From Chiloscyllium plagiosum (lineage: Eukaryota), in contig NC_057754.1 in assembly GCF_004010195.1 (NCBI RefSeq), positions 8,403,023-8,467,022 on the forward strand: a DNA stretch of 64,000 bases, read 5' to 3'. Numbering within the stretch: the first letter of the stretch is position 1; the number at the start of each line of letters is the position of its first letter. A program made the position numbers and the translations under genes. This document shows, one piece after another, positions 9,252 to 47,853 of the stretch. The notes below the pieces were generated by a model. It was not told where the DNA came from, did no database searches, and saw only the letters and a program-made list of their open reading frames with translations.

Positions 9252-10244
9252 TCAATCCTGAACATGTTCAACAGAAGCAGTAACTGCACCATCCAAAGGC
9301 GGCAGACACTTATGAACTTTCTGATGTGTCTGCAGGTTGGACTGCTGAGTGAATCCCTTCCCACACCCAGTGCAGGTGAATGGCCTTTCTCCAGTGTGAG
9401 TGCGTTGGTGTATTAGTAGAGTGAAAGATTTTGTGAACCTCTTCCCACACACTGAGCAGCTGAATGGTCTGTCACCTGTGTGAACTCGTTGGTGCGCACT
9501 GAGGTCAGAAGACTGCCTAAACCTCTTGCCACAGGAGGTGCAGCTGAACGGCCTCTCCTCAGTGTGAATTCGCTGGTGTCTCTGGAAACTGGATGACCCA
9601 GTGAATCCCTTCCCACACACAGAGCATGTAAATGGTCTCTCCCCAGTGTGAATTCGCTGGTGTTCAGTGAGACTGGAGGAACGTGTGAATGTCTTTCGAC
9701 AGTAAGTGCAGCTGAAAGGCTTCTTCTCAGTGTGTGCTTGCTGGTGTGATCTAAGACTGGATGACCAAGTGAATCTCTTCCCGCACACTGAGCAGGTGAA
9801 CGGCCTCTCCCCAGTGTGGATTCGCTGGTGTTCAGTCAGGCCAGATGGCAGTCTGAACTTTTTCCCACAATAGGTGCAGCTGAATGGCCTCTCTTCAGAG
9901 TGAACTTGCTGGTGTGCAGTGAGGTGGGATGACTGCCTGAATCCCTTTCCACAGCAAGTGCAGATGAATGGCCTCTCCTCAGTGTGAGTTCGCTGGTGTG
10001 ACAGGAGACATGCTGACTTTGTAAATCCTTTACCACACACAGAACAAGTGAAGGGTCTCTCCCCAGTGTGACTTCGTCGATGAATTTCTAGTAGAGATGG
10101 ATAATAGAATCCTTTACCACAGTCTTCACATTTCCATGGTCTTTCCATTGACCCAGGCCCAGCATGACTACGTCGGTGGATTTCTAGCAGGGAAGGGTAA
10201 TTGAATCCTTTACCACAGTCCTCACATTTCCATGGTTTCTCCAT
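9252..10244 (-). CDS. C2H2 zinc-finger protein, 11 fingers, 330 aa, no effector domain visible
   Basis: Uninterrupted ORF with 11 CX2CX12HX3H repeats and TGERP-type linkers. Good Kozak context (ACCATGG). Splice acceptor TTTTACAG|G at 10598 with a TACTGAC branch motif at 10629-10635. Confidence 0.93.
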
Positions 10245-11334
10245 GGTGCTAATATCCTTGTGTTTCTCCAGGTTGAATGATTAGTGCAGGCCTCTCCCAC
10301 ATACAGAATGTGTGTGAGGTTTCTCCCAGCTTGAATAGTGCAATATTTTTTCAAACTGCTTAACTGGTTAAAGTTCTTTCCTTAGTTAATTCACTGGGGT
10401 ACTCCCACTTAGGCATGTCAGTACTTTTCCAATCACACTGATGTTTAAAATCTCTTTGAGGAGACAGATCAGATGAACATCTCTTCTTCCAAGTTTAAAA
10501 GCCAGTAGTATTCAGATCCTTGTGGATCAAAGGACTCTGTCAGATCTTGATGTAAAGTTTGTTTTGAGGTTTTTGAGCAAATCTCCCCTTTATTATCCTG
10601 TAAAAGGAGTTTGCAAAAGTAATTCACTGTCAGTATAGGATGGAAATTCAGAATAGATTATTCCAGTTCCTGTGATTCCATTTTTCCTTTCTTGTTTCCC
10701 CAAAAGTCCCACACACTGTCTCTCATTCCTAGGTTGAAATCCAAACCCATCACCCTCACCATTTTTTCTCTCCATGGTAATCCAGGATGGAGGACAGGAA
10801 AAAATTGTGGCTGTAAGAGCTGCTCCTTTTTTGAGGCATTTTGAGGTGTTGGAGGTGATTTCCTCAAATTCCAGGAGCAGCAATTACAATTTTATGTGGT
10901 GTTGTATTCTTTGGATGTTTGGGGGGAGAAAAGGTCAAAACAACGGCACTTTAAAAAGGTGGAAGAATAACAAAGGCAGCGACCACACGATCAGAGAAAG
11001 AAACCTGTATTGCTGTCTGACACAGCAGCGAATCTGCACAGTTACTGCCTTCGCTGTTTGTGTTCAAACATCTTTGGACATCAGAGTGTGTCTAGGCTGC
11101 CAGAGGAAGTAGTGGATCCTGGTACAATTACAACATTTAAAAGGCATCTGGATTGTAAGAATTGTAAGACTTTGGAGGGATATGGGCCAAGTGCTGGCAA
11201 ATGGGACTAGATTAGATTAGAATGTCTGGTCGGCATGGATGAGTTGGAGCAAAGTATCTGTTTTTTCTCCTCTGTCTAACCTCAGCTTCTCAGCTCCTTT
11301 CGCCAGACAGTCTCAGACCAAGAGTCAATCATCT

Positions 11335-11690
11335 AGTCACGTGTCCCTATTAAACCCCGCCCATTCGGCCATGTTGCTCGAACGCTGCGCACGCACTCAC
11401 AACCCCATGAAAACAAAATGTCTGCTTCTCCGAAGCACCGAAAAAGCCTCCGAGCTGCAATAACAGGACCTACAGGTATTTATTTGGTGCCATCCCCAAT
11501 AATAAACGTTCACGAACGTTCCCCGCACGCTAACTGGTTCCACTCCGTTCCTTTGTTGCCGTCGCCTCTTACCGGTGCCGAGCGCCAAACGAGAATCTCC
11601 TCTGCGCCGTCACTCGGAAGACGGTGGCTCTGCGCTTGCGCACACGGTCCTGCTGACTCGATGAGGGACATTCTCTGCCGCGGGAGTTGC
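11335..11690 (-). promoter_or_regulatory. CpG-rich promoter and non-coding first exon of the 11-finger gene
   Basis: Local CpG excess. NRF1-like TGCGCTTGCGCA (11631-11642), ETS-like CGGAAG (~11615), GC box CCCCGCCC (~11355), E-box CACGTG (~11338). Minus-strand donor CCG|GTAAGA with the exon ending at 11573. Confidence 0.7.
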
Positions 11691-11711
11691 TGGGTAAAAG
11701 GCCCACCATTC

Positions 11712-11800
11712 CTGAAGAAGGGCTTATGCCCGAAACGTCGATTCTCCTGTTCCCTGGATGCTGCCTGACCTGCTGCGCTTTTCCAGCAACACATTTCCAG
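11712..11800 (+). mobile_element. Family A Penelope-derived insert with an intact hammerhead core (11712-11739)
   Basis: CTGAAGA-A-GGGC-TTAT-GCCC-GAAAC-GTC. TSD CACCATTC at 11704-11711 and 11801-11808. Confidence 0.82.
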
Positions 11801-11824
11801 CACCATTCACAATGGCAGGGCCAA

Positions 11825-12800
11825 AGATCTGCAGATGCTGAAGACCTAATTGCTGGGATACTCAGTCAATCCTGGCAGCATCTTTGAAGAGCAAACAGAG
11901 TTAACGTTTTGAGCAAACAGAGTTAACTTTCGAAGTTGATAGTAGCCTGAAAAAGGTGGTACTTATGAAAATAGCAGGGAAGGGGAAGGAGTGAGCAGAT
12001 AGGTAGATGGGGAGCCCAGAGAGAGAGAAACAAGTAAGGCAAACAAAGCGAGACAACCAAGAAGGAAAATCAGTTCTGATGAAGAGTCACTGCACCTGAT
12101 GTGTCAAATTAAATTTGATCTTGAGTCCTGAAGGCTATATTATCCTCTTCCCGACTCAAGTCTCACTGGAGTACCATAGCAGGCTTAACACCGAAACGTT
12201 GCTCAGGGAACACATAGGTGTTCTGCAAAGCAATCACCCAGTCTACATTTCATCTTTCTACATGTAAAAGAAGACCACATTGAGAGAAGTGAATACAGTA
12301 TACTAGACTGAGTGAAGGGCAGGTAAATTGCTGCTTCACCTTAGAAAGGGAAGGGATGAACAGAAAGGTGTTGCATCTTCGGTGATGGTGTGGGAAGGTG
12401 CTGTAGGGGTATTGACAGTGAAGGGAGGAATGGACCAGGGTATCCTTGCGGAACACTCCCTGTGTAGTGCTGACAAGAGAGGGGAATATGTGGATGTGGG
12501 TTTGCTCCCTGAGCTGGAAGGTTCATTTTCAGATGTTTTGTCACCATAGTAGATGATATCATCAGTGAGCTTCCAGATGAAGCACTGGTGGCACAGCCCA
12601 CTTTCTTTTTGTGTTTAGGTTTCCTTGGATTGGTGATGTCATTTTCTGTTCTTTTTCTCAGGAGGTGGTAACTTTGATCTAAGTCAATGTATTTGTTGAT
12701 AGAGTTCTGGTTGAAATGCCATGCTTCTAGGATTTCTTGTGCATGGCACAGTTTGGCTTGTCCTAGGATGGATGTATTGTCCCAGTTGACAACACTAGGA
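11825..12800 (-). mobile_element. Fragments of two Penelope-like families
   Basis: Decayed GIY-YIG VKQQFTCPSLSLVYCIHFSQCGLLLHV (12250-12456). A pLTR/3' ORF at ~12500-12800 matches the 7425-8310 family. Confidence 0.7.
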
Positions 12801-12949
12801 TAGCTTTACGTGCTGATGGGGAGAGAGAGAGAGAGAGAGACTGGGTGTGGATCTCGAAAAGTGGTGAAAAGAGCTGTCTGAGGGGTGTGGTACTTTTGGG
12901 TTTTAAAAAAAAATGTTTCCTGCAGCTCATGCCTTTGATTGGAAAGAAC

Positions 12950-13580
12950 ACAAGAATGTAAGAAATAGGAGCAGGAGTAGGCCATCTGGCCCCTCGAATC
13001 TGCTCCACCATTAAGTAAGATCATGGCTGATCTAGTCGTGATGTGGAGATGCTGATGTTGGACTGGGGTGTACAAAGTCAGAAGTCACATGAAATCACGT
13101 TATAGCCCAACAGGTTTATTTGAAATCACAAGCTTTCAGAGTGCTGCACCTTCATCGGGTGAGTGTCCACTCACTTACCCGTCCACTCACCATAACCTTT
13201 AATTCTTTTATTGTTCAAAAATATTTCTATCTTTGCCTTAAAAACATTCAACGTGGTAACCTCAGCTGCTTCTCTGGACTGGGAATTCCAAAAATTCACA
13301 ATCCTTTGGATGAAGAGATTACTCTCTCAACTCAGTCCTAAATCTGCTATCCCTTATTTTGAGGCTACACCCCCGGTTCTAGTTTCACCCACCAGTGGAA
13401 ACAACCTCCCAGCTTCTATCTTATCTATTCCCTTTATAACTTTATATGTTTCTATAAGATCCCCCCTCAGTCTACTGAATTCCAAAGAGTACAGTCCAGT
13501 CTACTCAATATCTCTTCGTAAGCCAATCCCTTCCAGGATCAATTTAATGAACCTCCTCTGCACCCCCTGCAGTGCCAGGT
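12950..13580 (-). mobile_element. CR1 3' fragment interrupted by a Penelope-derived piece (~13037-13170)
   Basis: CR1 3'UTR and RT end on the minus strand; the inserted piece matches the 39305-39462 family. Confidence 0.7.
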
Positions 13581-15059
13581 ATGGCTGAGACAGCGACTAA
13601 AGGCATATGTGCAATTGCTCCTCCTACCTTTGTGGATTTGAATCAAAGTATAGTCTCTCACACTGTACTGAAATCCGCTGTATAAGCATGTCTAATGGGA
13701 TTTCCAATGTTAAAATCAATACTTACATATGTTTTCAAATATTACCAATAATTCCACCCAGTGACATGATGGTAAATTCCATTGCATCATTTCCATGTAA
13801 GTGGTGGAGCACTGGTAATTACACCGGACCAGTAATTTTGAGACACACGATTTTGTTCAAGTTCAATATCCACCATGGGAGAAGGTGAAATTTGAATTCA
13901 AGAAAAATTTGGAATAAAAATACACTGTTGATTGTTGTTAAAAACCTACCTGGTTCGATCATGTCCTTTATGTGGCCTACTGGTTTCCCCGTCTGAACAA
14001 ATATAAGGTGTGACGCATAGAAAACCATTACTAATTGTTAGCAAATCTATGATGTGTTCAATGAAATGTTACATTTCAGCAAAAAAATTCATTATTTTCT
14101 TTGCTATGGTAGTGTGAAAACTGGAGTTAGAGGCACAATCAATAAAATTTAGTACCAACCTGTACACAAACCTAAGTCGATGGACAGCATTTGACACAAA
14201 GGTGGAGAATGGGATATCATGAAAATTGAGAGTTCCTCTTATAGCAGCAATGAGGTAGAACCAACAGCAGTCATGTTAACTGGGTGATCAGTTAGCGCAT
14301 CAGTAAAACTTGACAGACATTGTAGCTTTTTTTTAAAACATAAGAAATAGCAGGACTAGGCCATTTAGCTCATCAGATATTAAATAAGATTACGGCTGAT
14401 TTGTTTGCAGTTCTAACTTCATGTTCATGTCTGCTCTCTTTTTGTCAGTCAAGAACCTATCCAATTCAGCTTCAAATATATTTAATGACCCAGTCTCTTC
14501 ATCCAAGATATCAATATATATTGTAAATAACAGAGATCCTTGCACAGTTTTCTTGGTATTCCATACAATCTGAAAATGATCCATTTTTCCTGATTCTGTT
14601 TCCTATTGGTTAACCGGTCCACCATCCATGCCAATATGTCACCTTGACACCATGGACTCTTAACTTGTGCGTAACCTTTTATGTGTTGCCTTATCAAATA
14701 GTCCACATGCTTCACATAGAGGTAGAGTACTCCTTTATCTCACCTGCATTTTACATCCACAAACTATGTTGACCCTGCTTGGTTGTATTGTGTTTTCAAC
14801 TGTTTTATTATTACCTCCTTAAGAATGAAAAGTAGCATTTCCCCCAAGACACTTGAGACACTAACTGGCTTCCTATGTCTCTGCTTTCTTGAATGGAAGT
14901 GTTATATTTGTAGTTTCTGACTCACTGGGACCTTCCCAGAACCAAAGGAATTGAGAAAATAACAATTATTCATTTACCCTGAAACCATTTTCCTCTAGTG
15001 ACCGTCCTTGTTTTATGTTCCTTTCTCTCTTTTGCCCCCTATTTTTCTCATGTCTTTTA

Positions 15060-15285: not shown

Positions 15286-15429
15286 CAAACAAAACCAACA
15301 GCGATAGATATATAAAAAAAAATTTGACATGCTGTATTTAACAAAGTCGATTTGACTTTTAATCATAATATTAATCATGTAACTGGGTTGGAGTTTATTA
15401 ATATCAGCAAAAATAAACCCTGGTGAACC

Positions 15430-16135
15430 TGGTTCAGTCCTGAATGTAATATGCACCAGAATCTAAATGCTGCGCAAGTTATGAACTCACTGGTGTCTTT
15501 GTAGGATGGATGAAAGAGCAAATTTATTTCTGCACACTGGACAGATTAGATTAGATTAATTACAGAGTGGAAACAGGCCCTTCGGCCCAACAAGTCCACG
15601 CCGACTCGCCAAAGCGCGACCCACCCAGACCCATGCCCCTACATTTACCCCTTCACCTAACACTATGGGCAACTTAGCGTGGCCAATCCACCTAACCTGC
15701 ACATTTTTGGACTGTGGGAGGAAACCGGAGCACCCGGAGGAAACCCACGCAGTCACGGGGAGAATGTGCAAACTCCACACAGAGAGTCGCCTGAGGTGGG
15801 AATTGAACCCGGGTCTCTGGCACTGTGAGGCAGCAGTGCTAACCACTGTGCCACACACTAATGGTCTTTCTCCAGTTGTGAATGTGCTTGTGTTTTAGCA
15901 GTTGGAAGACATTGTGTATCTCTTTCCATAGTCTGAGCAGGTGAACATAGATGATTGAATGTAAACTTGTCTACCCACAGAACAGATGTAGTTTCTCCCT
16001 ATCCAGAACGGCACTGTTTACTTCCATGTTCAAAATTTGATGATGTTCAAGTTTTGATAAATTGGGCAATTTTATCATATTATGTTGTGACCTTTGATTT
16101 CAGTTTGTCCATGCAAAACCTGCCATTGTAATACC
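15430..16135 (-). pseudogene. C2H2 ZNF pseudogene disrupted by an HE1 SINE
   Basis: Acceptor TTTCACAG|G at 16136, with downstream sequence homologous to the two intact genes; MEVNSAVLDREKL start; finger FTCSDYGKRYTMSS..LLKHKHIH. Removing the SINE gives ERPLVCPVCRNKFALSSILQRHQ*VH. Stops and frameshifts present. Confidence 0.75.
15544..15855 (-). mobile_element. HE1-type V-SINE, near full length, young
   Basis: tRNA-like head (GGCACAGTGGTTAGC...GGTTCAATTCC), V domain GTGTGGAGTTTGCACATTCTCCCCGTG, TCTAA tail repeats. Confidence 0.9.
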
Positions 16136-16534
16136 CTGTGAAATTGACCTAAAACTGGGTGACAGAAAAGCCTAAAAAATGCAAAAGCAGGTTGTGAAAT
16201 TGAGTTGACTAAGTAAGTCCATCTGTGGGGCTGGCACTAAGAAAAAGTAATCGTGAAAGCTGCCCAGATTATTGGAAAAAAAACTTCTCAGTTCACTAAT
16301 GTCCATCAAGGAAGGAAACTTACTAACCTGGAGGTTCACAAACACTCTGACCTCTATGGGAGGAGACAGAAAGAAAGACAACGATGTTCGGGAAGCATGA
16401 GGCAAAGGAGAGGTTTATTTTATATACACATGGACAAAATCTCCCTCACCAAGGTAGTAGGTGAATGTGGACAATTTTCATGCTTCACAAACACAATCCT
16501 AACTTAATATCCAGTACTGGATGACAAGAAATTT

Positions 16535-17310: not shown

Positions 17311-18014
17311 CTTGAAGGCTTTCCTCCATCTGAGTATTGGGAACACAGATGTTATTATCTTCAGTCCCCACTACAAACCCTGTGACTTTGCCATTGATTT
17401 AATTTCTCTTCCCTGGCACTGGTCAGTGTCTGCCTCGGCGCATTTTCTGAATCTCGGGTCATCTGCTTCAGAATCTCTTCTCTATTCCTTCGAGACCTGA
17501 AGATGTAATGAATCCAACACACTCCTGACAAGTCTCCTACATTTATGCACTCAGAAACTGCAGTTTTTCCAATCTGTTCAAGCAGTAAGTTTGATTCCAT
17601 CTGAGCTGACTGTATTGCAGATCTCGTCACTGAACATTATTTTGAGGAGACAGGTTCTCAAAATATGAAAGTCTTTAAGTTGAGAGTCAAGGTTATTTAC
17701 CTTAAGGACAATGAATTAAACTAATATTTACCTCTAAAATGCACTCAAAAGTTGAGTAGTTATCGTTACATTGCCACCTCTGTGATAATGGTTCTTCTTA
17801 CTATTTGCTAACTTGGGGGGCTAACTACTTTGGTCAAATGTCAGTTCCAAACAGCACTAACCTGCAGTACGATTGTGTAGGCCAATCTCTGTTTCTGCGT
17901 AATGCTGGTATTGACTATAAATTCAGCAGTGTGGTGAACCCCCTCTGTAACAGGAATTCACAAACTCCATCCTCAGTCAATGATACACAATGCCATCCTC
18001 TCGACTGGGGTCAG

Positions 18015-18400
18015 GGGTGACCGCGCAGGCGCCCTCTTCTCCATTGCCCTCAATAAAGATGGCGACTTTCCCGGGGCCTGGCCCAGAATCGCCGCGGCGC
18101 TCTTCATATCTATCGCCTTGTTCTGCGCCAGTGCGGGACCGATAGCGCCTTACGCAAGGTTCCAGATTTCCAGCGTATACTTATAAAGCTTGCCCAGCTA
18201 ACCCGTTACCTCGCTGAGGTCCGCCGTCTCTGGCTGATAGCGGACGGGTTGTGTTCCTCGTCAGGGCGGCTGGAGGCCCGAATCCGGCGCATGTGCGAAC
18301 AGGAATCCAAACGGCGCATGTGCAAACAAGAATCCAAACGGCGCGTGGCCGAATCGGAACACGGCACTGCCCATGCGCGGTTCCTGCTGCGGAATGTGCC
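18015..18400 (-). promoter_or_regulatory. CpG-rich promoter and first exon, probably of the ZNF pseudogene locus
   Basis: High CpG density. NRF1-like GCGCATGTGC in a 27-bp tandem repeat (18280-18350), YY1-like AAGATGGCG (~18056). Minus-strand donor GAG|GTAACG with the exon ending at 18210. Confidence 0.65.
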
Positions 18401-18499
18401 AGGCGTTTGTGCAGAATCATAGGAGGAGGCCATTCAGCCCATTGTGACTGCACCGGCTCCTCAGACAAGCATCATTACCTCGTGCTATCTCCCCGTGTG

Positions 18500-19740
18500 A
18501 CTTCACCAAGCCTTTTGATAAGGTCACGCATGGGAGACTGATTGCAAAGGTAAGAGCCCCTGGGATGCAAGGAAATAGACATGAATTGGTTGCATGGCAG
18601 GAAACAGAGGGCGGTGGTTGAAGGGGGATTTTGTAACTGGAACTCCCGTGGGGTTTCCCAGCGGGGATTACTGGCCTTGCTGTTTGTAATGTACGTAAAC
18701 GACTAGGACTTGGAGGGTTGATCAGTGAAGTGACATGAAGTACACAGGTAAGGAGGTCACAAGAGGACATAGTGGGGAAGTGATGATCAGAGGCAAATGG
18801 AAGGACAAACAAGCCAAGGGAACACATGATGAACCTGTGACCAGAGGCATGTCCACCAGTACCTGAAGTAGTAGACCAGCTAAGTAGTTAAAAAGGAATA
18901 TGGGATAGTTGCCTTTATCAGCTGAAGCATAGAGTTTAAGAAAAAAGATGTGCAGGTCAGGTGAATTGGCCATTCTAAATTGCCCACAGTATTAGGTGCA
19001 TTAGTCAGAGGGAAATGGGTGTGGGTGGGTTACTCTTCAGAGGGTCGGTGTGGACTTGTTGTGCCAAAGGGCCTCTTTCTGCACTGTAGGGAATCTAATC
19101 TAAAAGCAGGGTGGTGATGGAACTGTGTAAAAGATTTGTCAGTCCACCAGCTAGATTATTGGATGCAGTTCTGGAATGTACATTATAAGAGAGTTGTTAC
19201 TGCACTGGAGAGGTTGGTGAGGAGATTTATCAGGATGATGCCTGGGCTGGAGAGTTTTAGTTATGAAGAGTGATTGGAGACACTGGGGTTGTTTTCCTTG
19301 AAGCAAAGGGAACATGACTGAGATGTGTAAAATTATGAAGGGCATAGCCAGAATAGATTCTGGAACTCTGTCTGTAAGGGTGGTTGAGAGACAAAAAAAT
19401 ACTGCAGATGCTGGAATCCAAAATACACAGGCAGGAGGCTGGGAAAACACAACAAGCCAGGCAGCATTAGGAGGTGGAGAAGTCAATGTTTCGGGTGTAA
19501 CCTGAAGAAGGGTTATATGTAAAACGTTGACTTCTCCACCTCCTGATGCTGCTTGGTTCACTGTGTTCTTCCAGCCTCCTGCCTGTGTAAAGATGGTTGA
19601 GGCAGAAACTTCATAACCTTTGTACACTTGCAATGCCAAGGATTACTGTGGGTGTGGGAAATGAGATTAGAATATGTGGTTGTTTTTAACTGGCACAAAC
19701 TCTAAGAGACTTTTTTTCTGTGCTGGAGGCCTCTGTATGG
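18500..19740 (+). mobile_element. Decayed CR1 with a nested HE1 3' half (~18945-19102) and a Penelope-derived hairpin, family B (~19389-19588)
   Basis: DFTKPFDKVTH-like RT motif. Hairpin arms CACAGGCAGGAGGCTGG...CCAGCCTCCTGCCTGTG, with a flanking duplication of TGTAA.G.TGGTTGAG. Confidence 0.72.
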
Positions 19741-24754: not shown

Positions 24755-27700
24755 GTAGAGGGTCCAACTCAGGAAAGAGCAAAACTCGATCTCCTCTTGG
24801 GAAATAGTTCAGGAGCACTTTGGGACCAATGACGATAGTTCCATTTATAGTTCTGATTTTAAAATAGTAATGGAGAGGGACAAAACTAGTTCAAGTTCTA
24901 AACTGGGAAATGGCGAATTTTGATGGAATTAGACAGGAGCTTGCAGAGGTTAACTGGAGTAGATTGTTTGCTTGCAGTCAAAGGGACCTCTGGCAAGTGG
25001 GAGGTCTTTAAAAGTGAATAGTTAGAGTTCAAGGTTGATATGTTCCTGTGAGGGTGAAAGGCAAGGTTCGCAGGAATAGGGACCCCTGATTGACAAGAGA
25101 TATTGAGGCTTTGACCAGAAAAAAGGAGGAGGTATGGCTCAGATACAGGCAGCAGGGATCAAGAGAATCGCTGGAGTGAGAGAGGGGATGTAGATGTTTA
25201 CTGAAGAAGGAAATCAGGAGAAATCAGGAGGGTGAAAAGAGGGTACGAGATGGCCTTGGCTGAGAAGATGAGGGTGAATCCTAAGTACATTAAAAGAAAA
25301 AGAGAGAGAACAGGACCCCTCAAGGACCAAAGTAGACGCGTGTGTGTGTGTGTATAGAACCGCAGGAGATGGCGACTCCTCAATGACTATTTCGCATTGG
25401 TGTTTGCTGTGGAGAGAGACATAAAGACTTTGGGAAATTAATGATATCTTGGGGATAGTCCATATCACAGGAGAGGTAATGTTGGACGTATTAGAATGTA
25501 TGAAGGTGGGTAAATCTCCTAGTCCTGACCAGATATATCCAAGAACACTGCAAGAGGCTAGAGAGGAAATAGTGGAGGCCCTGGCTGATATTTCTGCATC
25601 ACTTCTGGAAGACTGCAGGGTAACAAAAGATGAGCCATTATTCAAGAAGGGCTGCAAAGAAAAATGTGGGAACTGTAGACCTTAACATCTGTAGTGCCTA
25701 AGTTACTTGAGAAAATTCTGAGAGAAAGGATATACATCTTTTGGAAACAGAGGGTTTGATTAGGAGTAGTCAGCATGACTTTGTGTGAGAGCTCATGCCT
25801 CACAAATTCATTGATGAAGTGACAAGGAAGGTTGATGACAGCAGGGCAGAATACGTAGTTTGTAGAGCTTTCAGTAAAGCCTTTGGTAATGTTCCACATG
25901 ATAGGCTGCACTGGAAGGTTAGATCACATGGAATCCAGGGGATACACAATTGGCTTGATGGTAGGAAGCAGAGGGTAATAGTGGAAGGATGCTTCTCAGA
26001 CTGGAGGCCTGTGACTAGTGAGTGCCTCAGGGGTTGGTGCTGGGCCCATTGTTCGTTATTGATATAAATGATTTGGATGAGAATGTACAAGGCATGATTA
26101 GTAAGTTTGGTGATGACACTAAAATAGGCGAGATCGTGGACAGTGAGGAAGGTTGTCAGAAATTGCAGCAGGACCTTGATCAGCTGGGGCAGTGGGCCAA
26201 GAAATGGCAAATGGAGTTTAATATAGATAAGTGTGAGATCTTGCACTTTGGAAAGTCAAATAAAGGTAGGATTTTCATGGTGAATGGTAGGGCCTTAAGG
26301 AGTGTAGTGCAACAGAAGGTCTTTGCAGTTCAGGTGCACGGTTCTCTGAAAGGGGAGTCACAGGGCAGTGAAGAAGGCTTTTGGCACACTGGCCTTCATC
26401 AGTCAGGGCATTGAGTATAGAAGTTGGGAAGTTATGTTGCAGTTGTACAGGACGTTGGTGAGGCCGCACTTGGAGTATTGTGTTCTGGTTTGGTCACCTT
26501 GCTATAGGAAGGATGTTATTAAACTGGAAAGAGTGCAGAATAAATTTACAAGGATGTTGCCAGGACTCATGGTCTTAGTTGTAGGGAGAGGTTGGACAAG
26601 CTAGGACTTTTTTTTTTTACTTTAGAGTATAGGAGACTGAGGGGGATCTAATAGAAGTGTATAAGCTCATGAGAGGATGGACAGGGTGAATGCACTTAGT
26701 CTTTTTCCCAGGGTTGGGGAATCGAGGACTAGAGGGCATCAGTTTAAGGTGAGAGGGGAAAGAATAAAAGGGAACCTGAGGGGCAACATTTTTTAACACA
26801 GAGGGTGGTACGCATGTGGACTGAGTTGCCAGTGGAAGTGGCTGAGGTGGGTACATGAACAACATTTAAAAGGCATTTGGGCAAATACATGGATAGGAAA
26901 GGTTTTCGAAGGATTTGGACCAAGTGCAGAGAAATGGAGTTTGCTTTGATGAACATTTTGGTCAGCATGGACCAGTTTGGGCTAAAGGACTGTAGGTCTC
27001 TGACTCCATGGTATGATGTTGCAGAGAGACCTGGGTATTCCAGTGCCTGAATCGCAGAAGTTTGTAAGCAACGACAGCAAGTTATCAGGAACGTTCATAG
27101 AATTTTACAGTTTATTGCAAGGAGAATTGATTGCAAGAGAAGGGAGGTTATGCCTCACGGATATAAGGCATTAGAGAGACCGCATCTAGATTATTATGAG
27201 TCACCATGTATGAAAGGATGTTAATGCATTGGGAGCAGTTGAAAGGTTTACTCGAGTAATACTTGGGGGGAAAAAAAATAGATTGTCTTTTAGATAAAAG
27301 ATTTTTCTATTGTCTTTAATTTTGTCTTTTTAGATATATATTTAGATATATAAAAAGTAAGAAGGAGGCAAGAGTAGACATTGGATTGCTGGATAAGTGG
27401 TAATGGGGAACAAAGTGAATTGAATGGGTACTTTGCATCAGTTTTCACAGTGGAAGACACCAGCAGGATTCCAGAACTTTGAGCATCGGCGGGGGGGCCA
27501 TAGGTGAGTGTAGTGGCCATAACTAAAGAGAAGGTCTGAAGGTCCATAAGTCACATGGACTGAATGGACAACATCCCAGAGTTCAGAAGGAGATAGCTGA
27601 GGACATTGTAGAGGCATTAATGGTGATCTTTCAGGAATCACTGGAGTCCGGGAAAGTGTTGGCGGACTGGAAAAAGGCTAGTGTAATGGTCCTATTTAAG

Positions 27701-28759: not shown

Positions 28760-31490
28760 TGCACATCCACCCACTTTGAGCGGGCATCCGTAATGACTAA
28801 GAGTATTGAGCACTTGAATGGACCTGCATAATTGATACGTAACTGAGTCCAGGGTTTACCTGGCCATTCCCACGAATGTGGGGGAGCTGCTGGCAGTAAT
28901 GTTTGTCCTTATTGGCACCCTGGGCACTGCTCCACCAATGTAGCTCACTCTGCACCCAATTCTGGCCATCAGACACAACTTCTTGCCGACACTTCTGGAT
29001 GAGCCCAGTCGAGTTTAGCCCGTATCCGGTGGCAACCTTTGCTTGGGACAATCGTTCTTGCTCCCCATGCCGTCCTATACTGTGATCTAGAATCTCTGGC
29101 TCTGAAAAGGTTTCAGTTCTGGGTGTAGCAGCCATCATCACCAGCTCTTTCAGTCTTGCCAGGACTGGATCTTTCTACGTCTAAAGTCTGATTATTGTCA
29201 GCTGAAACTGTGTGTCTCCAGAAAATTTAAAACCATTCTGGCTTTTTCCAGTGGTGTATCTGCCAGCGGGAAGTAGCTTAATACATCTGTATTTGTTACT
29301 TGGCCTCCCAAACAATGTACCAACTTGTAACTATACACTGTTCATATTAGGGCTGAATTTAGCCTGAAGCTATGAGCAGCACTGCCTTGTCCTCTAAGTA
29401 GAGCTAGCATGGGTTTGTAGTCTGTTATTATTACAAATGTACAGCCGTAAAGGTAATGGTGGAACTTCCTGACTCCAAATGTGACCGCCACACCTTCCTT
29501 CTCTATGTTAGCGTATTTATGCTCTGCATTGGCCAAAGTCAAGGATGCATACTCTATTGGATGTTCCTCTCTGGGCCACCTATGAGCTAATACTACCCTG
29601 ATACAGGGAGGCTTCACAAATCAATATTAGATCTGTCTTGGGATCACAGTGTGCCAACAGCTTGGAGGATGATAGCTGTTTCTTCACTTCCCTGGCTTGG
29701 CTATGCGACCATTTCCAAAGCTGACCTTTTTAAAGAGTTGATGCAAAGGTGCCAGGAAGGAGGCCAGATTATGCATGAACTTTCCAGAACAATTCACCAG
29801 TCCAAAGAAAGGTCTAAGCTCCGGTACAGATGTGGAAGCTAGGGCGCCTTTGATCTTCCTCACTTTAACTTCCAACAGGTGTAACCTGTTGTTGCTTGGG
29901 GTGTGTGGAAAACATTTTTCCCTTCTGAGGTGTATGCCTGCCTGGGAGAAATGTCTGTCGAAGAGTGTGGTGCTGGAAAAGCACAGCCGGTCAGGCAGCA
30001 TCCGAGGAGCAGGAGAGTCAATTTTTCAGGCATAAGCACTTCATAGGAATTAGAATAGATGAGATTCCCTACAGTGTGGAAACAGGCCCTTCGGCCCAAC
30101 CAGTCCACAGCAACTCTCCGAAGAGCAACCCACCCCGACCCTCATCCCTCTGACGAACGCAGCTATCACTTTGGGCAATTTAGAATGGCTAATTCACCTG
30201 ACCTGCACATCTTTGGACTGTGGGCGGAAACTGGAACACCCAGAGGAAACCCATGCAGACACTGGGAGAATGTGTAAACTCCACACAGACAGTCACCTGA
30301 GGCTGAAATCGAACCTGGGATCCTGGTGCTGTGAGGCAGTAGTGCTAACCACTGAGCTAAGGAAATACCTCAGGATTATGCCCAAGTGCTCCTTAATTGA
30401 CTACCCTGTCATTCAGATAAATGGCAACCTGGTGTGGACCATGAAAAATGTTCTCGAGTGTCTGCTGAGAAATTGCACAGGATGACAGTACCCCAAATGG
30501 CAGTGTCTTATGTTGATACAAATCCTTGAGTCTGTATATGTAGTATACTTTGTGGGAAACATCATCTAACGGCAATTGCAAGTACGCATGGCTTATGTCT
30601 AGCTTCGTGTAGGACAGCTGTGTGTATACATCCTCTATGTGAGGGACTGGGTATGAAAAGCGGCTTGCCACTTGTTTAAGATTCCCACAAAGATGAACCG
30701 ACCTGTCAGACTTCACAATCAGTATGACCGGTGCTGCCCATTCCGCAATCTGGGCCTGTTTGGTGGCTCCTTTGCTTTCCAGGCTTGTGGTTTCTGCCTC
30801 TACTGGATACCGGCCTATACGTTCTCTTACCCAATTCGGGTCCGGTGGGACTCTTTTGCTATCTTGACTCTGCATACCAGCAGCAACTGCAATGGCATTT
30901 CAGCCCGAATCGTAAAGAAACGTTTAACCGTTTTGGCCGAGGTTTGGCTTTGTTTTGCTGTGGGCTGACTGAGAGTCCCTCTGTTCAAGATATGTCCTGA
31001 GTGAGGCTACGCTATTGCCTTCGCTCAGGTGGTGTTGCCCAAACTCAGTCGGACTGGCGAGGGTGTCCACTTCCACCAGAATACCCTGCAACTGGTCTGC
31101 TCCATTTTCCACATTTTTCCAATGGTAAATCCAGCTGAATTGCCTGTTTGAAGTCCAGTTGGGCTTCAACCAGCAGGTGCTTTTGCATGATTCCATCATT
31201 AATCCCACACACCAAATGGTCTCTTGGCCTCCCACTCTCGTCGCCACTGAAATAACTCCACAGGGGCCATGTTCTCATCACCAAGTCACCCTTTATTTAC
31301 CTGTCGAGAGTCCTTGATGCTGATTCAGTTCCTCCAAGACAGCACTCAGGCTGACTGAGATGTCTGCCATTCCTGTTTTTTTTTTCTCTTTGTTTTTTTT
31401 CCCCAGGAAGAAAGGAAACATCCGAGTGCCAAGTTGTGCCCTTCTCAAAAGGCAATGTTGAGTGATGAAACAGTGAACTGGGGGCACTCC
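28760..31490 (-). mobile_element. Ty3/Gypsy LTR retrotransposon remnant (partial LTR, PBS, gag, RT, RNase H)
   Basis: LTR end ...AATAAA...TTTCA (31248), then PBS-like TGGCGACGAG (31237-31246). Gag RDHLVCGIND; RT EWAAPV..YPVPHIED..TKLDISHAYLQLPL..LPFG; RNase H IEYASLTL..YANIEKE..FGVRKFHHYLYG..ITDYKP. Nested family A piece (~29955-30047) and HE1 (~30050-30358). Confidence 0.88.
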
Positions 31491-39462: not shown

Positions 39463-39509
39463 TTCAATAAGGAAAGTAACTATAGAGGTGCAGAATTTCT
39501 CTGCTTCCT

Positions 39510-40252: not shown

Positions 40253-40384
40253 TCCTGAAGAAGGGCTCATGCCCGAAACGTCGGTTCTCCTGCTCCTTGG
40301 ATGCTGCCTGACCTGCTGCGCTTTTCCAGCAACACATTTTCAGCTCTGATCTCCAGCATCTGCAGACCTCACTTGCTCCTTTAA
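40253..40384 (+). mobile_element. Family A insert with an intact hammerhead core (40255-40282), nested in another pLTR-derived repeat
   Basis: CTGAAGA-A-GGGC-TCAT-GCCC-GAAAC-GTC. TSD AAACGTTAACT at 40242-40252 and 40385-40395. Confidence 0.82.
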
Positions 40385-40494
40385 AAACGTTAACTATTTG
40401 TTTATCTATGAAAGCAGACCTGCTCAGTTGCTCCAGGCATTTGTTTCAGATTCACAGCATCAGCAGTGTTTTGCTTTTATTCAAGTACTTTTGG

Positions 40495-40830
40495 ATGGGC
40501 GGCTTCTGTTCAGTTAATTGTTGGCCGTCCCTAACGACGCAAATCAAAGCCAATGGCGGCCAGAATTCCCACAATTCACCGCGACGCAGAAACCGCCCGA
40601 GCTCATTTCCCCAGGGGTGGGAAGTGCGCATGCTTGACTTTTTGCCAGGCGCGGGGCATTGTGGGGGTTCCTTTGTTATGGCTCGGGCTCAGTGGAAGCG
40701 GTGCAGAGGATGGAAGGGGCGCTGCACTGAGGACTAGGGAAGGCCATTCACATTGTCGCCCAGCTCTCATTGCCCTTCGACTGAGTGACTCTGTCCAGAC
40801 CATTTCTCAGAGCAGCTAACCGCTCGACAA
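40495..40830 (+). promoter_or_regulatory. CpG-rich promoter, probably of the 7-finger gene
   Basis: CCAAT/YY1-like CCAATGGCGGC (40550-40560); ZNF143/Staf-like TTCCCACAATTCACCGCG (40566-40583) and an inverted CCCCCACAATGCCCCGCG (40650-40667); NRF1-like TGCGCATGC (40625-40633). Assignment to the gene ~6.5 kb downstream is inference. Confidence 0.65.
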
Positions 40831-41340
40831 CGTTGCTGTGGATCTGCATTATCATGTAGGCCGGACCAGGTAAGGAAGGCAGATTTTCATCCTAAGGCGG
40901 TGTCAATAAAGCAGATTTTTTTTTTCTCTCAATAACTTGATGGTAGCTCCATTATCATTATTAAGGCCAGCTTTATAATCCGGATTTATTATTTGGTTTT
41001 GAATTCCGATTCCACCGACAAACATGAACCTGCGCACCTCCCCCCCCGTCCCCAGAGCATTAAAATAAAACAAAGAACGTGCAGATGCTGGCAAGCTGAA
41101 ACAGCTCTGAAGATGGGTCACCAGACTCGAAGCATTAACTCTGCTTCCTCTCCACAGATGCTGCCAGACATGTTGAGTTTCTCAAGCCATTTCTGCTTTT
41201 GCTCCCACCCAAAGCACTAGCCTGGGCCTCTTGATTACTGCTTCAGTGACCTGACCGTCTGCCTCTGGCATATCCTTTGTCCCCTTTGTTCTCCCCAACG
41301 TGGATACCACATTCTGATTTTCTTAAATTCTTTTTGAGGC

Positions 41341-41480
41341 CCTGAAATCCCTGTGGCAGGGTCATTTTGGCAAGTAGGGATTGACTGTCCTGAACTCCAC
41401 ACGACAGGGTCTGTCAGTGACTGGGGATTAACTTGTGCTGAGCTAATTGTGACAGGGTCATGTTGGGATTCAGGGATTGT
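41341..41480 (+). repeat. Degenerate ~48-bp minisatellite (3 units)
   Basis: Units start at 41341, 41389 and ~41437: CCTGAA.TCC.TGTGACAGGGTCATGT..G.GA.T.GGGATTGACT. Confidence 0.65.
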
Positions 41481-41519
41481 ACAAATTAAAAATCACAAAG
41501 GAGCAATTCAAATTGCTGG

Positions 41520-44500
41520 GAGAACATAAAACAGTACAGCGCAAAAGAGAACCTTCGGGCCACCATGTCTGCACCGACCAGAATGCTGTTCTTAATGAAG
41601 TCCATCTGCCTGCACACTACCTGTATCCCTCTCTTCCCTACCTTTCATGTGTCCCTCGAAATGCTTCTAAAACATTGCTATCATATTTGCTTCTACCACT
41701 GCCAGTGTGTTCTAGGCACCTCCCACTAACTATGTATTTAAAGAAAATAAATTGCCTTGCACATCGCCATTAAACTTTCTCAGTAACCTTTAAGCTTAAT
41801 ATTTGTTGTTTTCATCTCAGGAAAAAGACTCCCAACTATCCACCCTATCCTTACCTCTCATATTTTTATATACTTTTATTAGCATTGCTTAAGCACAAAC
41901 AATCTAAGTTTGCCCAACCTCTCCTTATCGTTAATGCATTCCAATCCAGGCAACATCCTGATAAACTTCTGTTGCATTTTCTTTAATACCTCCACATCCT
42001 TCCTGTAGTGTGGCATCCAGAACTGCACACAATACTCCAAATGTGGCCTATCTAAAGTCTCGTACAGTTGCACCATGACTTGCCAACTTTTATACTGCAT
42101 GCCACACCCCTTCTCTACCACCTTACCCGCTTGTGCTGATTAGGGAGTATGGACTTGCACCCCAAGATTCCTCTAAATCAATCAGTAAAGGTCCTGCCTT
42201 TTACTGTATATTTTTCTTTTGCGTTTGACCTTTCAAAATTCATCAGCTCACACTTATCGGGGTTAAGCCCATCTGCCATTTCAGTGCCCCACTTTCTAAC
42301 TGATATTTATCCTGCTGTATCCTTTGACAACCTTCCCCAATGTTTACAATTTCACCAATTTTCATATTGTCCGCAACTACCCACTGTCTTCTATGACCAA
42401 GCCAATTTTGTATCAAACTTACCAACTCACCGTGGATCCCATGTGACTTGATTTCCTTGACCAGCCTGCCATGAGAGACTTTGTCAAATCTTTTAGAAGC
42501 TTTTTATGTAGACAACATCTACTGCCCTACACTCATCAATTATCTTTGTCACCTTTTCAAAAACCTCAATTAAATTTATGACAGGACAAAACAAAGTCTT
42601 GATATTATCCCTAATAAGTCCATTGTTTTCCAAGTGCAAGTAAAGATTCTTTTTCTCAAATGCATGTGTACTATAGGTCCTCTGATGAAGAGCTGGTGCC
42701 CGAAACATCAATTCTCCTGCTCCTTGGATGCTACCTGACCTGCTGTGCTTTTCCAGCACCCCACACTCTCGACTAGTGATCCTCTGAGTCCAAAGTAGAA
42801 GAGCAGATATTTAGGTAAATTCAAAGAGGCGTAAAAGTAATCGAGTAGTGTTAGGGATTTCACCTTCTCCCCTCCCACAACGTAAACTGGGATGGTCATT
42901 GTGTGAAAAGTTTGGAGGGAGCAGAATTCTTCAAATGCATCTAGGAGAGCTTTTTAGGCCAGTACCTACCAGACTATGAGGCCAGAACCTGTGGGTCCTG
43001 GACTTAATTTTCGATAATGAAGCTGGGAAAGTAGTTGAACTATCAATGGGAGAACATCTTGCAGGCAGTGATCATAATTCTGTTACGTGGGTGGCACGGT
43101 GGCTCAGTGGTTAGCACTGATGCCTCACAGCACCAGGGTCCCAGGTTCGATTCCAGCCTCGGGCAACTGTCTGTGTCGAGTTTGTGCATTCTCCCCGTGT
43201 CTGCGTGGGTTTCCTCCCACAGTCCAAAAATGTGCAGGTCAGGTGAATTGGCCATGCTAAATTGCCCATAGTGTTAGGTGCATTAGTCAGAGGGAATTGG
43301 GTCTGGGTGGGTTACTCTTCGGAGGGTCAGTGTGGACTTGTTGGGCCGAAGGGCCTGTTTCCACACTGTAGGGAATCTAATCTAATCTAAAATTGCAAGG
43401 GAAAAGAACCAGAATTGCCTGAAATAATTGTTCTCTATTGTGGGTAGGCCACTTTAAATAAAACCAGGTATAATTTGGCTAGAGTGGACGGAAAGAAGAT
43501 CCTGTCAGGTAAATCAGTATCAAAGCAGTGGGACATATTCAAGAAGGAAATGGGGAGGAGGATAAGGCCAACATCTTTAAAAAAAGACAAAGGGTCAGAC
43601 CAATAAATTTGATCCACAGGAAGAGGGAGGCTTATGGCAGATACTGAGGACTTAAAACACCAGAAGCCCCAGAAGTGTATAGAATATGAAAGGGAAAATT
43701 TAAAAAGGAAATTAGAAGTGTGGTATAAGAGGACAATGGCAGGTTAAATTAATGTCCTAAGTTACCTTTTAATGTTCTTGAAAAATAAAAGGATAACTAG
43801 GGAAAGAGTAGGGCCCACTGTGGGGTAATTTATGCATGGAGCCAGAGGATGTATGAAGGGTTCTAGATCAATACTTTCTGTTAGTGTTCACTAGTGAGAG
43901 GAACAATGTGGATACAGAAATCAGAGAATAGGACTGTTATATATTTAAATAAACTATCATAAACAAGTACTGAGTGGCCTAGCAGACTTAAAGGTAGATA
44001 AATCTGCTGGGCTGGGTGAAATGTAGCCAGGCTGTTGAGTGAGGTGGGCATGTGCAAAAAAAAAAATCATTTTCTCCTCTAGCTACAGGAGAGGTGCCAG
44101 AGCATTAGAGGACAGCTAATGTATCATTATTCAAGAAGGGCACAAGGGATGTACCAAGAAACTACAGGCTAGTCAGCCTAATCTCAGTAGTGGAGAAAGT
44201 GAGGACTGCAGATGCTGGAGATCCTGATGAAGGGCTTATGCCTGAAACGTCAATTCTCCTCCTTGGATGCTGCCTGACCTGCTGTGCTTTTCCAGCACCA
44301 CACTCTCGACTCCAACCTCAGTAGTGGGGAAGCTATTGGAACCAAGTCTGAGGGACAGAATCTGCACTTGAAGAGGCAAAAACATGGTTTTATGAAAGGA
44401 AGGTTAGGGTTAGACCAACTTGATTGAAAGTTTCAAAGAGGTGACTGGATGGTGTAGATGAGGGCAATGCATTTGATGTTGTCTACCTGAACGTTTTGCA

Positions 44501-45210
44501 AAGTTTTTGATAAAGTTCTGTATGATAGACTGGTAACAAAGACAAGAGCACATGGATTCCAAGGAAATTTGGCAATTTCATTCCAGAATTAGCCAAGTGG
44601 CAGGAAGCAGAGGACCAATCGATGAGGGTGTTTTTGTGACTGGAAGCCTGTGCTGATTGGGCTCTGAAAGTTTCATTGTATATGTAAACCACAAACTTAC
44701 AATTTAGCCTTGAGTATATGAGGGTTGATCAGAAGATTTGCAGATGGTACAAGAACTGTTCTGAATAATGGGGAGGAAAGCTTTAATTACACAAGGATAG
44801 AGACAGGCTGATCAGTAGCAACTAGAATTCAATCAAGATAAGTCCAGGCGGGACAAATAAGGCAAGCGAATATATATTGAATAATAGGAGCCCAGGATAA
44901 AATTGAGGGGCGTAGACAGGAAGCAGCTTTTCTCCCCCTTAATAAAGGGATCAAGGACTGGGGCATTGTTTTAAGGTAAAGGTCAGAAGACTTAGGAGGA
45001 AAAATCCTTTTTTAACCAGAGAGTAGTGGGAATCTGCAGTTCATTGCCTGTAAGGATAGAGGAAGCAGAAATCCTCACTACATTTAAGAAACATTTAGGT
45101 GTAAAACTGTGACGGCATACAAGGCTATGGGTTGCTGGAAAATGGATTAGGTGATTGTTTTTGATTGAGCCTGTGCCAATGGCCCAAAAAGCCGCCTTCT
45201 GTGCTGTAGA
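41520..45210. mobile_element. CR1 fragments (- strand 41520-42660; + strand 42790-45210) with nested HE1 (43088-43390) and family A inserts (42682-42775, 44195-44312)
   Basis: RPHLEYCVQFWMPHYRKD; EN and RT remnants. Duplications TCCTCTGA and AA(T/C)CTCAGTAGTGG flank the inserts. Confidence 0.82.
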
Positions 45211-45233
45211 TCTCTTTTTGGCTGTAAATCTGC

Positions 45234-45420
45234 TTTGAACTCCCTGTGACTGGATCATGTCAGTGAGTAGGAATTGGTACTCTTATGACAGGATGACTTT
45301 GTTGAATGAGAATGGTCTGTCCTGAACGCCTTGTGACTGGGTCAGGTTGGTGAGTGAGGAATGACTATCCTGAATTTCCTCCCTCTCATAGGGTCCTGTT
45401 GGTGAGTGGAGATTGACTGA
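45234..45420 (+). repeat. Degenerate ~48-bp minisatellite (about 4 units), same family as 41341-41480
   Basis: Units at ~45234, ~45277, 45321 and 45369; three contain GTGAGT. Confidence 0.65.
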
Positions 45421-45556
45421 CGGACGGACTGACGGATTGTCCTGGGAACCCATAGGAAGACTATCTAAAAAGCTGGAGGTACAAGGGAGTAGCAAATTCA
45501 GTCAGCCTTCCTGCTGATTGAGAACTGGAAGCTGAGTGAGTCAGTGTGATAAATAG

Positions 45557-45652
45557 GAGAAAGCCCTTCCTGAAGAAGGGCTTATGCCCGAAATGTCGAT
45601 TCTCCTGTTCCCTGGATGCTGCCTGACCTGCGCTTTTCCAGCAACACATTTC
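45557..45652 (+). mobile_element. Family A Penelope-derived insert
   Basis: Hammerhead core from 45570 (GAAAT variant). Perfect TSD CAGTGTGATAAATAG at 45542-45556 and 45653-45667. Confidence 0.82.
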
Positions 45653-47262
45653 CAGTGTGATAAATAGTAATGTAAATATTTATTTTTACAAATTCACTTG
45701 GAGTTTTTTTTTAATTACAATTGAGTTTAATGCTTTTGTTAGGTAAATATCCTTTCTGTTTGTAGTGAACCACATTGCATCCCTGAGAAGATGCTGGTAG
45801 TTAATTCATTCATTGATGGGACTTTAACAGCTGCTGTAGTGGGGTGGAAGTGTGGAGGGAAAAGTTCTCGGACCACTCGTAGGTTGCAATCTAGTACTCG
45901 CCTTTATTGTAATTAAGCCAGCAAGAGAGCAATAGACAAAAATCCAGGGCATCAATCAGGGATCACCCTGAATATGCTAAAAACTGATCTCTGATTTCTA
46001 CCAGAAAGGCAGCATATTTTATAGGCTTTAAGTGTGTAACAATTTTACGTGTTGCATTCACACACAACGAAACGTTATGTTCTCATAAGTAAAAATAGAT
46101 AAAGCAAGCCAGTTAACAATGTTCTAACAATAATACTGGGAAGAAGCGTATACAGAAACATCTCCAAGCTTATGCAGAGACTCCTGCATTCTTGCAATTC
46201 ATGTTCTCACAGTCACTGTTCCTGCAGCTGCCATTTTGAACTTGTAAGACAAACCATTATTGCAGAATGGAGACTTACAAAATACAGACTTATAATTGTT
46301 GATTTCCCAATACTTTATCATAGCAACACTGACAGCTTTGTTAGGAAGGGCGTTCCAGGAATTTGACACAGGGATGGTGAAGAAATTGTTCCACCTCAAG
46401 ATGGCATGAGATCTGGAGGGAATCCCTGAGGGTTCTGATATTCCATTCACCCAGGAGGAATGGAGCCTGCGGCTGGCCTGAAGGAATTGGGAACACTTTG
46501 TAGAGCAGCAGACCCTGATTTCAGATTTGCAGCTCCCTGATTGGCAACTCCTCTTCCTTCCCTCACCCTGTCCCTTCCTCCCAGGAGCAAGCAGAGAGGA
46601 ACAGCCCTCATCTTGGGGCAGCAGCGGATCGGCGGGCAAAAGGAAAGAGAAATAAGAGATTCCGCTTTGCAGTAAATCACTGAGGCTTTGATGTCTGGTC
46701 AGGGGAGGTGGGTGGGAAGGATTCATTACCTGCTGTTGGAGGCTCCAAACCCAGAATTAGGCTCATTGATTTGGTAGCGAGGCCAGGCAGAGGACGGGGA
46801 GGGAGGGAGAAAACTGGGCAAGAAACGGGAGACATTAATTTGGATTTCAGCCCAGAAAGAGAAAATGTGTGGGACAGAAATTTACAACTTGGGGGAACAA
46901 GAGGAAAAAGTTTCATAGGAACTGGAATTATCTGTTTCAAATTTCCAACTTGTACTGACGGTTGATGACTTTTGTAAACTTGTTTACAGGGTTTTGAAAG
47001 GGGCCACTTGCAGATGAGAAACTCAAATCAAATATCACATTAAGACTTGACAGTCACTTACTCTGCGACTTGGACGTCATTGACCTTTGAGCTGAAAAGA
47101 AGACATTTGTGAACCAGTTACACAGCCTGAAAACAAACACTTTGCCCACTCACAGCGGCAAGAAACTGCTGTTTCTATAAATGTGTTCTGTATGAGGACA
47201 AGGCTTCAGCTGATTTATACACACTCCTCTCACAGCTAACCATTCACAAAGATACCAGCACA

Positions 47263-47853
47263 ATGGAGAAACCATGGAAATGTGGCGACTGTGGAAAGGA
47301 ATTCCGTTTTGCATCCCAGCTGGAAACTCATCAACGCAGTCACACCGGGGAGAGACCATTCCCCTGCTCAGAGTGTGGGAAAGGATTTATCAATTCGTCC
47401 TCTCTCCTGAGACACCAGCGGGTTCATGATGTGGAAAAGCGCTTTACTTGCACCGTGTGTGGAAAGGGGTTTAATCGATCATCCAACCTTCTCACACACC
47501 AGCGCATTCACACAGGGGAGCGGCCGTTCACCTGCTCGGAGTGTGGGAAGGGATTCACCAGTTCATCCCATCTTCTGAAACACCAACGTGGTCACACCGG
47601 GAGGAAGCCATTCACCTGCTCCCAGTGTGGGAAGGGATTCACTAACTCCACTGACCTTCTAACACACCAGCGAGTTCACACCGGGGAGCGGCCGTTCACC
47701 TGCTCGGAGTGTGGGAAAGGATTCACTCAATTGCAAAACCTAATGAGACACCACCGAGTTCACACGGGAGAGAAGCCGTTTATTTGCTTTGTGTGTTGGA
47801 AGCGATTCGCTGAATCACAGCATCTAAGGAGACACCAGCAAGTTCACAAGTGA
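47263..47853 (+). CDS. C2H2 zinc-finger protein, 7 fingers, 196 aa, no effector domain visible
   Basis: Intact ORF with 7 CX2CX12HX3H repeats and TGERP linkers. Acceptor TTTACAG|G at 46989 with TACTGAC at 46953-46959. Confidence 0.92.
   Translation: MEKPWKCGDCGKEFRFASQLETHQRSHTGERPFPCSECGKGFINSSSLLRHQRVHDVEKRFTCTVCGKGFNRSSNLLTHQRIHTGERPFTCSECGKGFTSSSHLLKHQRGHTGRKPFTCSQCGKGFTNSTDLLTHQRVHTGERPFTCSECGKGFTQLQNLMRHHRVHTGEKPFICFVCWKRFAESQHLRRHQQVHK

Follow-up and report, generated by a model that had tools for sequence, protein, structure and literature searches.

Two intact zinc finger genes in a shark genome

The subject of this analysis is a 64,000-nucleotide stretch of the genome of the shark Chiloscyllium plagiosum (NCBI RefSeq assembly GCF_004010195.1, contig NC_057754.1, positions 8,403,023 to 8,467,022 of the forward strand; hereafter, the window), in which a six-frame scan detects two arrays of C2H2 zinc fingers, both of them intact and on opposite strands (gene 1, minus; gene 2, plus). 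With 11 and 7 zf-C2H2 stretches, respectively, joined by canonical linkers, the two open reading frames (ORFs) encode tandem poly-C2H2 (Kruppel-type) proteins. Both proteins start with MEKPWKC, and a finger with a tryptophan before its first cysteine, which we denote the lead finger, is the hallmark of the family of elasmobranch zinc finger (ZNF) proteins described here. Among the best 25 of 34 and the best 25 of 46 Pfam matches of the two ORFs, only finger-type families are found, with no KRAB, SCAN or BTB domain among the families shown, in agreement with the initial annotation, according to which both intact genes encode fingers only.

The lead finger begins at residue 7 and is joined to the rest of the array by a 7-residue linker. 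In the predicted structure of the gene 2 protein, which consists of seven finger folds, it is an ordinary finger with a predicted local distance difference test (pLDDT) score of 80-90, and searches of the ESM Atlas and the Protein Data Bank (PDB) yielded generic C2H2 neighbors only. The closest database match to the first finger, the sole candidate of the region search, is a model from Chiloscyllium punctatum (P0121), with 93% identity over the lead finger. The first finger of gene 1 is identical to that of gene 2 at 19 of 27 residues, compared to a mean of 15.9 and a maximum of 21 for later fingers of gene 1 paired with those of gene 2 (54 pairs). Judged from the window alone, this excess is modest; it is the family-wide data that carry the claim of a conserved first finger.

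A lead finger confined to the start of the array

We collected 241 proteins, 29 of them chondrichthyan by name (15 of these from Heterodontus) and 212 others; finger slots were counted in 47 shark and batoid arrays, including the window genes, with P0143 counted apart. A finger with proline at helix position +1 and glutamate at +5 occupies 31 of the 94 first or second slots in these arrays and none of the 290 later slots. In the 212 other proteins, such a finger is found in 1 of the 660 first or second slots and 2 of the 2062 later ones, that is, in 3 of 2722 fingers. Thirty of the 47 shark and ray arrays carry it, as do 4 of the 7 shark arrays in the subset obtained by generic search, and judging by the named proteins, the helix signature is common to sharks and batoids. 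The lead-finger ZNFs are an elasmobranch family defined by a Pro+1/Glu+5 finger that is limited to slots 1 and 2. The family had been proposed to be chondrichthyan; within that group, the proteins compared show it to span sharks and batoids.

The tryptophan before the first cysteine follows the same slots: in 60 sequences, it was found 26 times in slot 1, 7 times in slot 2 and never in a later slot. In the pairs picked on this tryptophan alone, 27 of 29 lead fingers contain Pro+1 and 27 of 29 contain Glu+5. Some batoid arrays retain the helix without the tryptophan (P0179 and P0230 have tyrosine instead; in P0230, a tryptophan substitutes the core phenylalanine). A profile of the acidic linker located upstream of the fingers, which included no intact finger, retrieved 34 hits, of which 33 are family-like (P0262, an unrelated repeat protein, was dropped); among the hits with a downstream finger, 13 of 19 have the lead finger, or 10 of 16 when only new proteins are considered, as judged by eye.

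At positions -1, +2, +3 and +6, the lead finger shows 6.27 bits of variation compared to 10.01 bits for the next finger (29 pairs; none of 5000 paired swaps reaches this difference), so the lead finger is less variable than its neighbor. A first finger as variable as the others would, according to the initial annotation, have been fatal to its proposal. The lead finger is not invariant, with 22 distinct fingerprints in 29; the fixed residues are the tryptophan, Pro+1, Glu+5 and Arg or Gln at +8, and positions +3 and +6 vary. The tandem duplicate of the lead finger in gene 1 differs from its copy by 10 synonymous and 2 replacement changes (ratio of nonsynonymous to synonymous rates, dN/dS, of about 0.03), and in lead-finger comparisons generally, the proportion of synonymous differences (pS) is 0.45-0.60, with replacements rare. 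Given that synonymous divergence is high and replacements are few, the conservation is at the protein level, and the sequence comparisons identify the lead finger as a specialized module under purifying selection.

Gene structure and transcripts

Gene 2 has a non-coding exon 1 in a CpG-rich promoter patch, an intron that ends in a conserved element, and a single finger exon; the same layout is predicted for gene 1 (Table 1) and would be that of the family. Of the 24 listed sequencing runs, 4 were compared with positions 40300-48300, the gene 2 region; none of the listed runs is on record as RNA, X3, X13 and X9 were taken as RNA runs by guess, and the contigs drop rare isoforms. A 483-base X13 contig joins 40690-40866 to 46987-47292 with 2 differences, which, allowing for a three-base ambiguity at the joint, defines the GT..AG intron; the acceptor is also where an X9 contig begins, and the donor is where an X3 contig stops. 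An AG at 47155, within the open frame of gene 2, is skipped in the contig seen. The spliced leader of 474 bases contains six ATGs, every one of which is stopped ahead of the main ATG, so the spliced isoform encodes fingers only. Thus, as read from the sequence and one spliced contig, gene 2 produces a fingers-only protein, and the in-frame upstream effector exon that had been envisaged as one challenge is absent from the one spliced isoform seen. Raw reads of X19 (about 2% of the run) cover gene 2 sparsely and contain neither the joint nor the start. Formally, the spliced contig could still stem from a recent retrocopy, and minor isoforms are possible among the 528 joints outside those shown. 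For gene 1, the transcript evidence is indirect: in each of four runs from a single study, 0.75-0.77 of its sequence words are present, with 0.747 expected for the exon alone.

Table 1. Features of the two finger genes and of the decayed third locus (window coordinates)
Feature	Positions	Strand	Remarks
Gene 1 ORF	9252..10244	-	330 amino acids, 11 C2H2 fingers, 14-residue tail, no other domain
Gene 1 lead finger (Trp/Pro+1/Glu+5), tandem copy 2	10068..10148	-	25/27 residues same as copy 1; pS 0.57, proportion of nonsynonymous differences (pN) 0.03
Gene 1 lead finger, copy 1	10164..10244	-	Carries the start ATG
Gene 1 leader	10245..10598	-	Decayed acidic linker and dead fingers; all three frames stopped; at least 3 short upstream ORFs
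Gene 1 intron-end element, family-conserved, with splice acceptor	10599..10748	-	115/142 columns same as gene 2
Gene 1 exon 1, predicted non-coding	11573..11700	-	CpG-rich patch; predicted donor 11572, not seen in reads
Decayed third locus	15480..16135	-	Acceptor, linker and remnants of two fingers; interrupted by a repeat at about 15550-15850; lead finger lost
CpG island	18001..18500	-	Observed/expected 1.0; candidate promoter of third locus
Gene 2 exon 1, non-coding	40669..40869	+	CpG-rich patch; X13 and X3 contigs; 5' end not defined
Gene 2 intron	40870..46989	+	GT..AG, 6120 bases; final 150 bases form the conserved element
Gene 2 leader inside finger exon	46990..47262	+	Decayed linker and fingers; main frame untranslated
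Gene 2 ORF	47263..47853	+	196 amino acids, 7 C2H2 fingers; lead finger 47263-47343

Ahead of the start methionine, 12 codons are open in gene 1 and 44 in gene 2. In the X9 run, which carries the label of a related organism, the gene 2 leader (274 bases) shows 10 substitutions along with 2 one-base deletions, one of which falls within the 44 open codons, compared to at most 3 substitutions in the 292 bases of coding pieces covered (Fisher p 0.049 at worst); the coding part of gene 2 looks to be under selection while the leader decays. The upstream ORFs, six in the gene 2 leader in addition to those of gene 1, should lower translation. Zebrafish C2H2 mRNAs are also reported to stall ribosomes (PMC11620358).

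Around the splice acceptor, a 223-base stretch is 71.7% identical between the two genes; upstream of the last 150 bases of the intron, identity drops to 69 of 121 positions. The intron-end element itself (46836-46989 in gene 2) is 81% identical between the genes, above the lead-finger synonymous sites (about 40%), and is also present, in translated form, in models P0247, P0261 and P0268; it might serve splicing or regulation throughout the family, or else be a tract of gene conversion. The exon-like stretch at 46586-46665 (plus strand), the translation of which resembles a segment of P0007 just ahead of the linker, is skipped in the spliced X13 contig and covered solely by an unspliced X9 contig; from its sequence, it may be what is left of a coding exon of the ancestral gene. 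The promoter patches of the three loci show no clear mutual homology.

Start types and the upstream region

Between the acceptor and the ATG of both genes, an acidic linker is followed by dead fingers, with stops in three frames; the gene 1 linker is matched by one that a Stegostoma model keeps in frame (E 1e-8). Because the start methionine of each gene occupies the position of an inter-finger linker, behind a decayed coding leader, the N-terminus is a truncation product rather than the primary design. There are two types of start. Some family members use a methionine located further upstream, which adds one finger ahead of the Trp finger; in the other type, to which genes 1 and 2 belong, this upstream finger is dead. 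Given that it is intact elsewhere, the constant part of the family is the Trp finger rather than the MEKP start. The claim that both genes begin with the same atypical finger is thus accurate as far as the MEKPWKC start is concerned, but gene 1 holds two copies of this finger, and in the family, it is often second in the array, with the methionine directly preceding it in only 13 of 35 cases.

Pfam searches of the 33 linker-bearing models, with all families visible for each protein, yielded no KRAB, SCAN or BTB match. The 24 upstream segments of such models contain no common domain, and the few stretches that they share are translated intron element, repeats, or one cluster of three models. 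The description of the genes as "effector-less" applies to gene 2 and likely to gene 1, but may not hold for the whole family, given that the finger can come second and that an acidic N-terminal linker is still read in frame in some members. The automatic shark and ray models named "zinc finger protein 239-like" or "850-like" belong to the same family as genes 1 and 2; these names carry no family definition, and many of the models fuse neighboring genes or translate leader, intron or repeat. The long "ZNF850-like" shark models (P0123, P0133, P0140, P0162 and others) fuse several neighbors via translated repeats, and in these, the lead finger marks the start of each gene.

Possible roles of the lead finger

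The base-reading positions of C2H2 fingers are -1, +2, +3 and +6 (PMC4592553). Because fixed residues of the lead finger lie outside these positions, and +3 and +6 vary, this finger would most likely offer a common protein-contact surface, either for a shared cofactor or for other members of the family; we give such a role close to an even chance. Positions +5 and +8 we take to be near the tryptophan. Homodimer prediction for residues 1-56 of the gene 2 protein, in which the alignment was not used, scored 0.00 and provides no answer either way. Protein-binding N-terminal C2H2 fingers are documented in Drosophila (PMC12774644), and an interaction survey of human C2H2 proteins included some that lack auxiliary domains (PMC5131825).

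Genes 1 and 2 belong to an elasmobranch tandem poly-C2H2 family in which, under the scenario that we propose, the ancestral N-terminus, an acidic linker with two or three fingers, decayed into a leader with upstream ORFs. Translation would then start from a methionine created in a finger linker and yield a fingers-only protein, in which the lead finger would contact proteins and the variable later fingers would choose the DNA targets. Taken as a whole, this scenario falls a little short of an even chance. The lead finger may take the place of the separate silencing domain of land vertebrates, and, by analogy, transposons might be the main targets; the link between ZNFs and transposon silencing comes from cross-species correlation and a zebrafish knockdown (PMC10547256). 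A system of this kind in sharks and rays, in which hundreds to thousands of ZNF genes would silence transposons, with a repurposed lead finger as the repressor-recruiting module and the ancestral N-terminus discarded into the 5' leader, we consider doubtful. The observation made in the initial annotation is partly confirmed. Its interpretation, in which the first finger may recruit a cofactor, is partly supported in that it withstood two of its three refuting conditions, an in-frame upstream exon and equal variability of finger 1.

Several findings weigh against the proposed scenario. The signature is missing from slots 1 and 2 in 17 of the 47 shark and ray arrays and in all 5 P0143 arrays, and the lead finger of gene 2 has the tryptophan and Glu+5 but Ala rather than Pro at +1. 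Between genes 1 and 2, the lead-finger pN is 0.15, the same as for the lowest later-finger pair. Many of the sequences were found with a lead-finger profile, are unvalidated gene models and come disproportionately from Heterodontus, and one contig shows that one isoform is present, not that others are absent. Furthermore, positions -1 (Tyr in 22 of 29) and +2 (Ser in 23 of 29) are conserved as well, as would be expected of a fixed DNA contact. The lead finger could, then, be constrained for DNA binding or folding, as a fixed anchor, a backbone contact or a cap that stabilizes the array, and recruit nothing, in which case the proteins would act, if at all, by occupying DNA. The canonical linker to the array, the ordinary predicted fold, and the structure of the KRAB-type array ZFP568, whose fingers 1 and 3 also have Pro+1, are compatible with this explanation. 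However, position +3 (Glu, Gln, Lys or Leu) and +6 vary, the fingerprints are numerous, +1 and +5 are the most fixed positions, and the signature is nearly absent from the fingers of other animals, which makes a purely DNA-binding or structural role rather unlikely.

Also bearing against the proposed scenario, in at least seven models (P0007, P0153, P0245, P0248, P0249, P0251 and P0252), the acidic linker and the fingers are in the same reading frame, and the linker is recognizable as protein between shark and skate models. Genes 1 and 2 might, accordingly, be truncated derivatives of a family in which other members translate a separate N-terminal module, either this linker, which with its acidic charge and about 35 residues is FiNZ-like, or a small exon missed by annotation; the exon layout resembles that of KRAB and FiNZ genes (PMC10547256). 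Nevertheless, three models (P0002, P0172 and P0243) read the linker in another frame, the linker profile could return only models with an in-frame linker, the upstream segments share no domain and lack KRAB, SCAN and BTB, and gene 2 is expressed, with a coding part that looks selected without the linker; we regard a separate module as improbable. Finally, the shared finger could have been inherited, with no special function, from a recently amplified master copy. The large size of these families in elasmobranch assemblies (see below) and the 81% identity of a non-coding intron end would fit recent amplification, but the lead finger has diverged widely at synonymous sites, with replacements rare, and the helix signature is common to sharks and batoids, so that this explanation appears very improbable.

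Comparison with known systems and significance

Like the KRAB-ZNF genes of tetrapods and lobe-finned fish, the shark genes are clustered, lineage-specific C2H2 arrays in a single last exon; both groups include dead copies, and their recognition helices vary (PMC10547256 and PMC10380595). Unlike these genes, which are further characterized by TRIM28-dependent repression of the transposons they bind, the gene 2 isoform has no KRAB domain and no coding upstream exon. According to PMC10380595, KRAB-ZNFs are confined to lobe-finned vertebrates. The FiNZ-ZNF genes of cyprinids are likewise a large family of fish genes that does without KRAB, with a two-exon layout and a feature conserved at the N-terminus, but FiNZ is an acidic peptide of 28 amino acids on its own coding exon (PMC10547256, where FiNZ cofactor recruitment itself is described as not yet shown). 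In the shark genes, by contrast, exon 1 is non-coding (as seen for gene 2), and it is one of the fingers of the array that is conserved. FiNZ-ZNFs also show positive selection at recognition residues and transposon derepression upon knockdown; in the shark family, the helices of later fingers are the more variable ones. SCAN-ZNF and BTB-ZNF genes differ in the domains that give them their names, neither of which is among the Pfam families shown for the window ORFs or found in the linker-bearing models. The dimerizing CGx-Phi C2H2 family of Drosophila (IMZF; PMC12774644) is likewise defined by an N-terminal finger, one that makes protein contacts via non-canonical residues. That finger depends on an additional beta-strand motif and is separated from the array by 100 residues or more; the shark finger lacks both features, being joined directly to its array.

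We found no description of the lead-finger family in the PubMed Central (PMC) open-access and bioRxiv full text searched, with subscription papers outside the scope, and it is apparently a real, undescribed variant of lineage-specific poly-ZNF expansion. The main text of PMC10547256 does not contain "shark", "catshark" or "cartilaginous"; in its supplement file 2, the counts of multi-finger ORFs range over 703-3586 for the seven elasmobranch assemblies, compared to 475 for a chimaera. PMC8455134 mentions only C2H2 enrichment and KRAB loss. The elasmobranch multi-finger ORFs thus include a clustered expansion that is counted but not characterized in the literature searched. The lead finger is a marker for proper annotation of the family, and with its 27 family-diagnostic residues, a small bait for tethering and immunoprecipitation-mass spectrometry (IP-MS). 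If true, finger-borne repressor recruitment would be a third solution, beside KRAB and FiNZ.

The decayed third locus and the repeat context

The initial annotation counted three paralogous loci, one of them dead. The third locus is indeed a decayed finger remnant (tblastn E 3.4e-5), but its nucleotide alignment with gene 1 scores 156.5, barely over the shuffle maximum of 146.9 (30 shuffles), and no Trp finger is recognizable in it. Judged by eye, it seems to be of the start type with an extra first finger. Upstream of it, at 16330-16355 (minus strand), a polypyrimidine tract is followed by AG and, 26 bases on, by GT, a possible mini-exon.

A YY1-like motif occurs at chance level (37 matches compared to 34 expected) and was rejected. 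No tRNA genes were found in the window. Self-repeats, the finger arrays included, make up 30% of the window, and reverse transcriptase (RT) fragments are present in 4 of the 16 window ORFs tested. A long, decayed element resembling long interspersed nuclear elements (LINEs) extends over 995-6200 (plus strand), with an RT fragment at 4757-5266, and further RT fragments are located at 26022, 30396-30899 (minus strand) and 35347.

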